IMG/VR virus record: IMGVR_UViG_2851938318_000015
Strand: one strand, 5' to 3'
DNA from: a virus
Taxonomy: Duplodnaviria > Heunggongvirae > Uroviricota > Caudoviricetes
DNA: 36,695 nucleotides
In this document: in pieces, positions 9,490-10,269 of the stretch
How positions within the stretch are numbered: position 1 is the stretch's first letter
Layout of the letters: each line of letters begins with the position of its first letter
The notes under the pieces: model-generated
Told to the model about the DNA's origin: nothing
The model's database searches: none
Seen by the model: only the letters and a program-made list of their open reading frames with translations
Translations under genes and position numbers: made by a program

Positions 9490-9954
9490 TGTTTTGTTAT
9501 GAATATGTTACTGGTAACGTTAAGGTAATTTAACAAAGAGTCAGTTCCGGACTTTATAGTGTGCTCAGTTCATGGCCAAAAACGATTTCTGTGATAAATA
9601 TTTTGAATATTATTTACAGGTAAATGGAGTGGGGCGTATGGATAGAAATATTACAATAGAGTATGAAGTATATGCCCGTATTGTATGGGCAGAGAAGGCA
9701 AAAACACGGTAATTCCGTATGTTGCCATGATACCTGATTGGCAGAATAGTTGTTTGGTTTTGAGTATATAGTCAGCGTTTTTTGTTCAGTAATTGCCCCC
9801 TCAAAAAATAATAAAATAAGGTGATTATTTTTGTTTATTATTTAGTTTTTTTTGTGTGTTGTTTTATTGTTTTTGCGTGGTTTGTTTTTTATTGTTATTT
9901 CATTAAGGGAAGGTAAATTCAGGATGGCAGTCTGTAGATAATCGGAGGTCACTT

Positions 9955-10269
9955 ATGCTACATGATCACGTGGCAGAATGTCTGGAGAAAAAAGGACTGT
10001 ACCGGAGAGCAGCTGAACGATGGGCAAAAGTGATGGTACAGCTAAGTGATGACCAGAAAAGAAAAGTGGCGGCACAGAAACGAGCAGAGTGTTTGCGTAA
10101 GGCGCGCCGGACTCCGGTTTCACCGGTGAACCTGACCGAAATAAAACAAGCGGTCAACAGACTACATTCTGAGTTGGGAATGGGATTTGAAGAGCGGCGG
10201 GTATTCCGACGATATAAAGGGACAGGAGAACAGAATACGTCCGGAAACGCGCGGTCAAAAAAATGCTAA
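9955..10269 (+). CDS. PerC-family transcriptional regulator (Pch-like)
   Basis: 104-aa ORF with the PerC-like core LEKKGLYRRAAERW...KRAECL; preceded by a roughly 460-bp AT-rich, T-tract-rich region; followed by a terminator. Confidence 0.55.
   Translation: MLHDHVAECLEKKGLYRRAAERWAKVMVQLSDDQKRKVAAQKRAECLRKARRTPVSPVNLTEIKQAVNRLHSELGMGFEERRVFRRYKGTGEQNTSGNARSKKC

Follow-up and report, generated by a model that had tools for sequence, protein, structure and literature searches.

Among the closest known relatives of the gene considered here are PerC of enteropathogenic Escherichia coli (EPEC) and the Pch proteins of enterohaemorrhagic E. coli (EHEC), both activators of the LEE1 (ler) promoter in the LEE, that is, the enterocyte effacement locus (PMC4456613). 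We analysed a pch gene with its upstream region (positions 9490-10269) in virus record IMGVR_UViG_2851938318_000015, a stretch of 36,695 nt assigned to the Caudoviricetes, which we call the window. PerC, an 89-aa protein, is encoded by the third gene of the PerA-controlled perABC operon on the EPEC plasmid (pMAR7/pEAF), whereas Pch is monocistronic, prophage-borne and preceded by a long AT-rich leader.

The genes pchA, pchB and pchC form group 1; their coding sequences differ at nt 16, 172 and 183 alone (PMC5931665). Group-1 Pch is needed for full LEE expression and for adherence (Iyoda & Watanabe 2004, as cited in PMC4456613). In K-12, PchA lifts ler::lacZ activity ~6-fold, from 1577 to 9087 Miller units (PMC5931665). 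Binding of Pch to the LEE1 promoter region does not depend on H-NS, and Pch lowers the occupancy of H-NS/StpA there; on co-expression of PchA and Ler, H-NS occupancy drops also at effector loci outside the LEE, nleG clusters among them (PMC4764244). Control of pchA itself has been attributed to LrhA, Lrp/butyrate, LeuO and sigma-S/NtrC (PMC4456613, PMC7279287, PMC10714755). Like Pch, the proteins PchD and PchE (groups 2 and 3) and YfdN of K-12 are prophage-encoded members of the PerC family (PMC5931665, PMC6265319); the effect of either PchD or PchE on ler is small or absent, and PchE instead represses curli and flagella (PMC5931665, PMC6265319, PMC7369912).

The explanation of the window locus in which we have high confidence is that its 104-aa open reading frame (ORF) is pchA, carried in a ~0.9-kb cassette that separates the lysis module from the packaging module in a dusA-integrated lambdoid prophage remnant of an O111-type EHEC.

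Identity of the pchA gene

The ORF lies on the + strand, with ATG at 9955 and a stop codon at 10267-10269. It is identical to pchA of E. coli O157:H7 strain Sakai (ECs_1091, prophage Sp4) in 104 of 104 aa and 315 of 315 nt. Because the group-1 genes can be distinguished at the three positions given above, this match identifies the gene as a pchA allele. By its sequence the ORF belongs to group-1 Pch, and nothing contradicts this identity. The sequence-only reading, made earlier from the letters of the window, had recognized a PerC-family core and suggested alignment to PerC and Pch proteins; both the family assignment and the alignments support it, and the ORF, for which disruption had been considered, is intact.

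The Pfam model PerC (PF06069) matched residues 1-89 at model positions 1-89 of 90 (E 3.8e-44; 149.3 bits, cut-off 22.6), and PHROG 994 was matched with E 1.4e-45; no NCBIfam model matched the protein, and a search of the PDB found no sequence relative. In alignments of 22 and 30 diverse family members the columns R17, R18, A19, A20, W23 and C46 are invariant, with E11 and G14 additionally invariant in the 22-member alignment. All of these residues are present in the window protein, which carries the family motif G-x2-RRAA-x-RW and the conserved Cys. PerC of pMAR7 has the same invariant residues and 47% identity to Pch over residues 2-88; Pch differs by a 15-aa basic C-terminal extension, predicted to be disordered. 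The PerC family is small; among 1.84 billion representatives it accounts for 82 clusters at the 50% identity level. An exhaustive phmmer search with Pch also returned a 7614-aa protein with seven matched stretches and a 768-aa protein with five (P0025 and P0059; Pch residues ~21-80); here the basic helical region of Pch was probably matched through repeats or composition.

LEE activation by PerC homologues, stated in the sequence-only reading, has been established experimentally for the identical protein (PMC5931665, PMC4764244), with measurements of LEE1 promoter activity, of adherence and of H-NS displacement (PMC4764244). The cassette is already known, a textbook case and ordinary for EHEC: the role of pchA, pchB and pchC as LEE master activators dates from 2004, and PchA/B/C were detected in six of six O111 strains in 2007 (PMC2323221). 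The locus has little weight as a discovery; its practical value lies in annotation, since what RefSeq names ‘PerC family transcriptional regulator’ can be specified as the pchA allele.

A cassette between lysis and packaging genes

Upstream of the leader are genes for a P21-type holin (8322-8528), lysozyme (8528-9025) and Rz (9010/9022-9489). Downstream of pchA follow a disrupted DUF3950 gene (10317-10481, - strand), an HNH gene (starting at 10523), TerS (11170-11733) and TerL (11730-13391). The Stx phages LC567829 and LC567837, which have no pch, share Rz and the DUF3950/HNH/TerS genes with the window, and the DNA between these flanks is unrelated. Presence or absence of pch between conserved flanks of related phages bears out the moron-like position that had been proposed for the gene. 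We conclude that pch is carried in a ~0.9-kb cassette made of leader, gene and hairpin (Table 1), with 39% GC versus 52% in the window.

The cassette resembles phage morons, such as lom and bor of lambda or stx downstream of Q, in being an extra gene between conserved phage modules, and shares with them a distinct GC content, a downstream hairpin of its own and absence from otherwise collinear phages. An autonomous promoter is among the features that define morons; that of pch is only presumed, in the T-rich core of the leader.

Distribution was determined in 5426 complete E. coli genomes. The leader and the ORF occur in the same 672 genomes, at 1875 and 1874 places, respectively (median three per genome); leader and gene are inherited as one unit. 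The best-matching place has an ORF at least 99% identical in 686 of 687 records. The window is near-identical to O111 EHEC chromosomes, and its segment 9400-10400 has 100% identity to many O111:H8/H- genomes.

The order Rz-leader-pch is the same in strain A25, which has the most divergent E. coli copy. The Sakai pchA locus has the same gene and hairpin and the same adjacency to Rz, also in a lambdoid prophage. There, however, the block of lysis genes and pchA lies inverted between IS629 and ISEc8, whereas in the window it stands in standard orientation, leading from Rz to DUF3950/HNH/terminase.

At the left junction homology to Stx phages fades ~34 bp past the Rz stop codon; window positions 9498-9523 match an Stx phage (L004, 1028-1053) with 81% identity over 26 nt (blastn, E 0.006). 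We considered an origin of the distal leader by decay of the 74-aa post-Rz phage ORF and rejected this beyond 9523: only the first ~26 nt are homologous, tblastn was negative and further columns of the MAFFT alignment were spurious.

On the right side the hairpin downstream of pchA has predicted folding energies of -14.7 kcal/mol (+ strand) and -12.1 kcal/mol (- strand) and is 100% conserved in Sakai and A25. It escaped an automatic terminator scan, probably owing to the position of its T-run within the extended stem. The adjoining DUF3950 gene has lost 94 bp relative to A25 and the Sakai pchA locus, so that its first 31 aa are kept before a frameshift. The gene is intact, at 74 aa, beside pch in A25, and an intact gene is also present in pch-less Stx phages; RefSeq lists it as a pseudogene in strain 11128. 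Replacement of the 3′ end of DUF3950 by the cassette was rejected, as the comparison with A25 shows a plain deletion. In the nearby HNH gene (10523-10978), annotated by RefSeq as incomplete in strain 11128, a run of 10 Gs (10887-10896) stands in place of the 7 Gs of Stx phage Stx2_EH2201, and the C-terminal tail is altered and extended.

Table 1. Features of the pchA cassette, its right flank and the effector locus, in window coordinates
Feature	Position	Strand	Evidence or remark
Stub past Rz stop, left cassette junction	9490..9523	+	Homologous to start of small post-Rz ORF in pch-less Stx phages
Distal pch leader	9524..9790	+	~33-38% GC; unannotated; specific to E. coli group-1 pch cassette
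T-rich leader core, presumed promoter/regulatory region	9791..9925	+	Composition; T-runs at 9828, 9846, 9862, 9870, 9885
GGAGG Shine-Dalgarno of pchA	9944..9948	+	Read from sequence; conserved in all aligned homologues
pchA allele, group-1 PerC homologue, ler/LEE1 activator	9955..10269	+	PF06069 and identity to Sakai ECs_1091
Candidate anti-SD (10047-10054) overlapping DicF complement (10052-10059)	10047..10059	+	Folding and K-12 DicF sequence
Hairpin 3′ of pchA stop, intrinsic-terminator shape, possibly bidirectional	10306..10332	+	AAAAAGCGACU-UUAGU-GGUCGCUUUUU
DUF3950 (YlcI/YnfO-family) phage gene, disrupted, right cassette flank	10317..10481	-	94-bp deletion directly after 10386
NleG-family effector gene, N-terminally truncated (RefSeq)	32775..33254	+	PF06416 T3SS_NleG, E 8.7e-46; RefSeq DUF1076 pseudogene
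espW effector gene	33385..34443	-	RefSeq ‘T3SS effector EspW’ on 99.97%-identical DNA
NleG-family effector gene, full	34522..35172	-	PF06416, E 2e-46
espM2 effector gene, IpgB/Map WxxxE family	35355..35945	+	PF03278, E 2.3e-29; RefSeq ‘EspM2’

The AT-rich leader

The 465 bp between the Rz stop codon and the pchA ATG (9490-9954) have 32.9% GC versus 52.3% in the whole window; a GC content as low or lower is found in 0.8% of all 465-nt windows of the stretch. Runs of at least four Ts occur at 19 per kb versus 5.3 per kb, 3.7-fold above average, and the core of the leader (9760-9910) has 25% GC and 52% T. The leader is therefore as long, AT-rich and T-tract-rich as had been described from the sequence, and the leader together with the pch ORF is a real feature of the window, far from chance. 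Other tracts as AT-rich (465-nt windows with at most 36% GC) are found at two places only: 1-1138, the left-end flank and attL side, and 32830-35750, the effector locus with nleG, espW and espM2.

Conservation of the leader is uneven. The whole Sakai pchA leader is 98-99% identical to that of the window. Identity to A25 is 96.6% in the distal leader, 71.9% in the T-rich core, 86% in the Shine-Dalgarno (SD) region, 94% in the ORF and 100% in the 3′ flank; the pattern could reflect a recombination mosaic or a fast-evolving promoter region. In the homologues of E. albertii (91% aa identity) and Escherichia sp. MOD1 (77%) upstream conservation extends only ~110-130 nt before the ATG, so that the 3′ part of the leader, from ~9835, is the sole upstream stretch kept there as well.

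The distal leader (9524-9790) has 98.5% identity to the Sakai pchA leader and is not common to the E. albertii or MOD1 homologues. That it is itself a functional element, as part of a long regulatory 5′ untranslated region, as a small RNA or as a docking platform for LrhA, Lrp or H-NS, strikes us as rather unlikely. The idea comes from its inheritance with pch at all ~1875 places, and from its conservation in A25, higher than that of both the core and the ORF. If true, it would account for ~270 bp of non-coding DNA retained beside pch. An Rfam search over 9300-10500 (gathering and E-value thresholds) found no family save a chance match to MicX (E 0.49). A 46-aa ORF at 9572-9712 was rejected as a gene; it is treated as non-coding because it matched no Pfam or NCBIfam family.

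Proposed translation control and mode of action

According to accounts (PMC7769764, PMC7873438, PMC9438474) of the work of Melson & Kendall 2019, the small RNA (sRNA) DicF frees the SD sequence of pchA from an anti-SD sequence within the coding region. The pchA mRNA of the window is identical to that of Sakai from the SD region (9926-9954) through the stop codon. In the predicted fold of the full-length mRNA, 9944-9951 pairs with 10047-10054 (pair probabilities ~0.6), and 10052-10059 (ACCAGAAA) is an 8-nt complement of nt 1-8 at the 5′ end of DicF (UUUCUGGU). The predicted SD:anti-SD fold is consistent with the reviewed DicF mechanism. RNAduplex gave no meaningful result for whole DicF against whole pchA mRNA, as 11 of 300 shuffled sequences scored equally well.

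Combining these data with the published work, we propose the following course of events. Transcription of pchA would start from a promoter in the T-rich core, ~50-150 bp before the ATG, and the AT-rich leader may serve as a platform for nucleoid-associated proteins and for LrhA, Lrp, LeuO and sigma-S/NtrC, the regulators to which pchA transcription is reported to respond. Translation would be blocked by intramolecular SD:anti-SD pairing, a block that DicF is reported to relieve at low oxygen. The window copy is presumably expressed. By the literature on the identical protein, Pch binds the LEE1 (ler) promoter region, changes and in part displaces the repressive complex of H-NS/StpA and increases ler transcription; Ler and Pch together then switch on LEE type III secretion and many non-LEE effectors carried by prophages, nleG clusters included.

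Some points limit this scheme. The SD:anti-SD pairing was seen only in folds of the whole mRNA and not in the shorter fragments tried; for the 8-nt DicF match ~0.25 occurrences are expected by chance in a 370-nt target, by our estimate. A scan with the sigma-70 consensus gave a single weak + strand site at 9722-9750, which is chance level, and no transcription start could be assigned. In a scan for the high-affinity H-NS motif (TCGATAAATT, up to two mismatches) there were 26 matches in the window versus 26.5 expected, with one weak two-mismatch site in the leader. Enrichment of matches to the Lrp consensus merely follows the AT-rich islands, and all sites in the leader have three mismatches. 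Finally, since the LEE is outside the window, it is from the match to O111 EHEC genomes and from the literature that we take this target to be present in the host.

On the basis of leader composition, silencing of the pch leader by H-NS is plausible. The alternative, that the leader is not silenced by H-NS and owes its AT-richness to activator sites (LrhA, Lrp, LeuO) or to neutral AT drift in non-coding phage DNA, is in our judgement possible but doubtful. The chance-level count of the high-affinity motif and the poor conservation of the T-rich core in A25 speak for it, as does the literature, in which we found no direct H-NS binding or chromatin immunoprecipitation evidence for the pch upstream region. 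However, 25-33% GC with dense T-tracts is within the range that H-NS prefers, and the only comparably AT-rich tracts in the window are 1-1138 and the effector locus, such effector loci being documented H-NS targets in Sakai (PMC4764244). In addition, a PpchA-pchA-PLEE1 sensor became responsive only after deletion of hns, though possibly via PLEE1, as the effects on PpchA and PLEE1 are inseparable in that design (PMC7279287).

Decay of the prophage and expression of pchA

The element is a decayed prophage remnant in which the pch cassette and effector genes are intact. In comparison with O111:H- strain 11128, the early genes from exonuclease to the XRE repressor and ymfL, 7.25 kb in all, are absent at a junction with IS1203, and because of this loss the prophage is without an immunity or replication region. 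No more than one or two of the 5426 genomes have this junction as contiguous sequence, with an exact match in strain RM9131. A truncated prtN adjoins the IS1203 remnant at 2538/2539 (context 2273-3327). For the near-identical prophage of 11128, RefSeq marks frameshifts in the genes for portal and integrase.

Such decay raises the question whether pch is intact yet effectively silent cargo that adds little beyond the other genomic copies. Loss of the early region with its repressor, the damaged HNH and DUF3950 genes beside pch and the frameshifts annotated in 11128 fit this view, as do the median of three cassette copies per carrying genome and the read counts in strain PA20, where pchA has the lowest of three copies (PMC5931665). 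We nevertheless consider it very improbable. While its neighbours decay, pch has kept its ORF, SD, proximal leader and terminator undamaged; identity of at least 99% in all but one of the records argues for purifying selection on the ORF; and deletion of pchA alone cuts LEE output in Sakai (Iyoda & Watanabe 2004, as summarised in PMC4456613 and PMC10714755). With an intact regulator cassette and effectors next to a lost immunity region and damaged HNH and DUF3950 genes, the prophage illustrates selective retention.

A second question is the origin of the pch transcript. Expression might come mainly from read-through of the Q-antiterminated, SOS-linked late transcript, with the leader a mere spacer or relic. 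In accord with this, pch is co-oriented with and located directly 3′ of Q, holin, lysozyme and Rz, no strong terminator was predicted in the Rz-pch interval, a phage ORF has left its relic in the first ~34 bp of the leader, and SOS induction raises group-1 pch transcripts (PMC5931665, PMC6265319). We find this account improbable. Loss of the early region makes it less likely here, as the remnant is without the immunity and early genes that would drive expression of Q, and in PA20 the SOS induction was significant for pchC only, not for pchA (PMC5931665). LrhA and Lrp/butyrate have been described as acting on the upstream or promoter region of pchA itself (PMC4456613, PMC7279287), and a synthetic PpchA-pchA module functions on a plasmid (PMC7279287). 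Co-inheritance of leader and gene, with ~110-130 nt upstream of the gene kept even in E. albertii, also counts against read-through as the main source.

Effector genes and other observations

The sequence-only reading had suggested that the prophage may supply effectors as well as an activator of their secretion machinery. Effector genes are indeed present in the same element (Table 1): two NleG-family genes and a gene of the EspM2/IpgB family are supported by Pfam, and espW, in which no Pfam match was found, by its RefSeq name. They sit beyond the tail-fibre genes, within the AT-rich tract described above.

Beyond E. coli a scan of genome contigs found just two loci, and distant Pch homologues (31-52% identity) are located on plasmids of E. 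albertii, Salmonella, Klebsiella, Citrobacter and Serratia. PerC-family genes whose products are 100% or 79% identical to the window protein are present on some E. coli plasmids, e.g. pDEC5B-4 of O55:H7 strain DEC5B; the cassette was found at 15 plasmid places.

Two sRNA genes were identified by Rfam elsewhere in the window: STnc100 at 5607-5815 (+ strand, 175 bits) and the anti-GcvB sRNA AgvB at 5816-5875 (- strand, 56.2 bits, just over the gathering score). Both directly follow three phage tRNA genes (5246-5494) and stand where Stx phages have stx.
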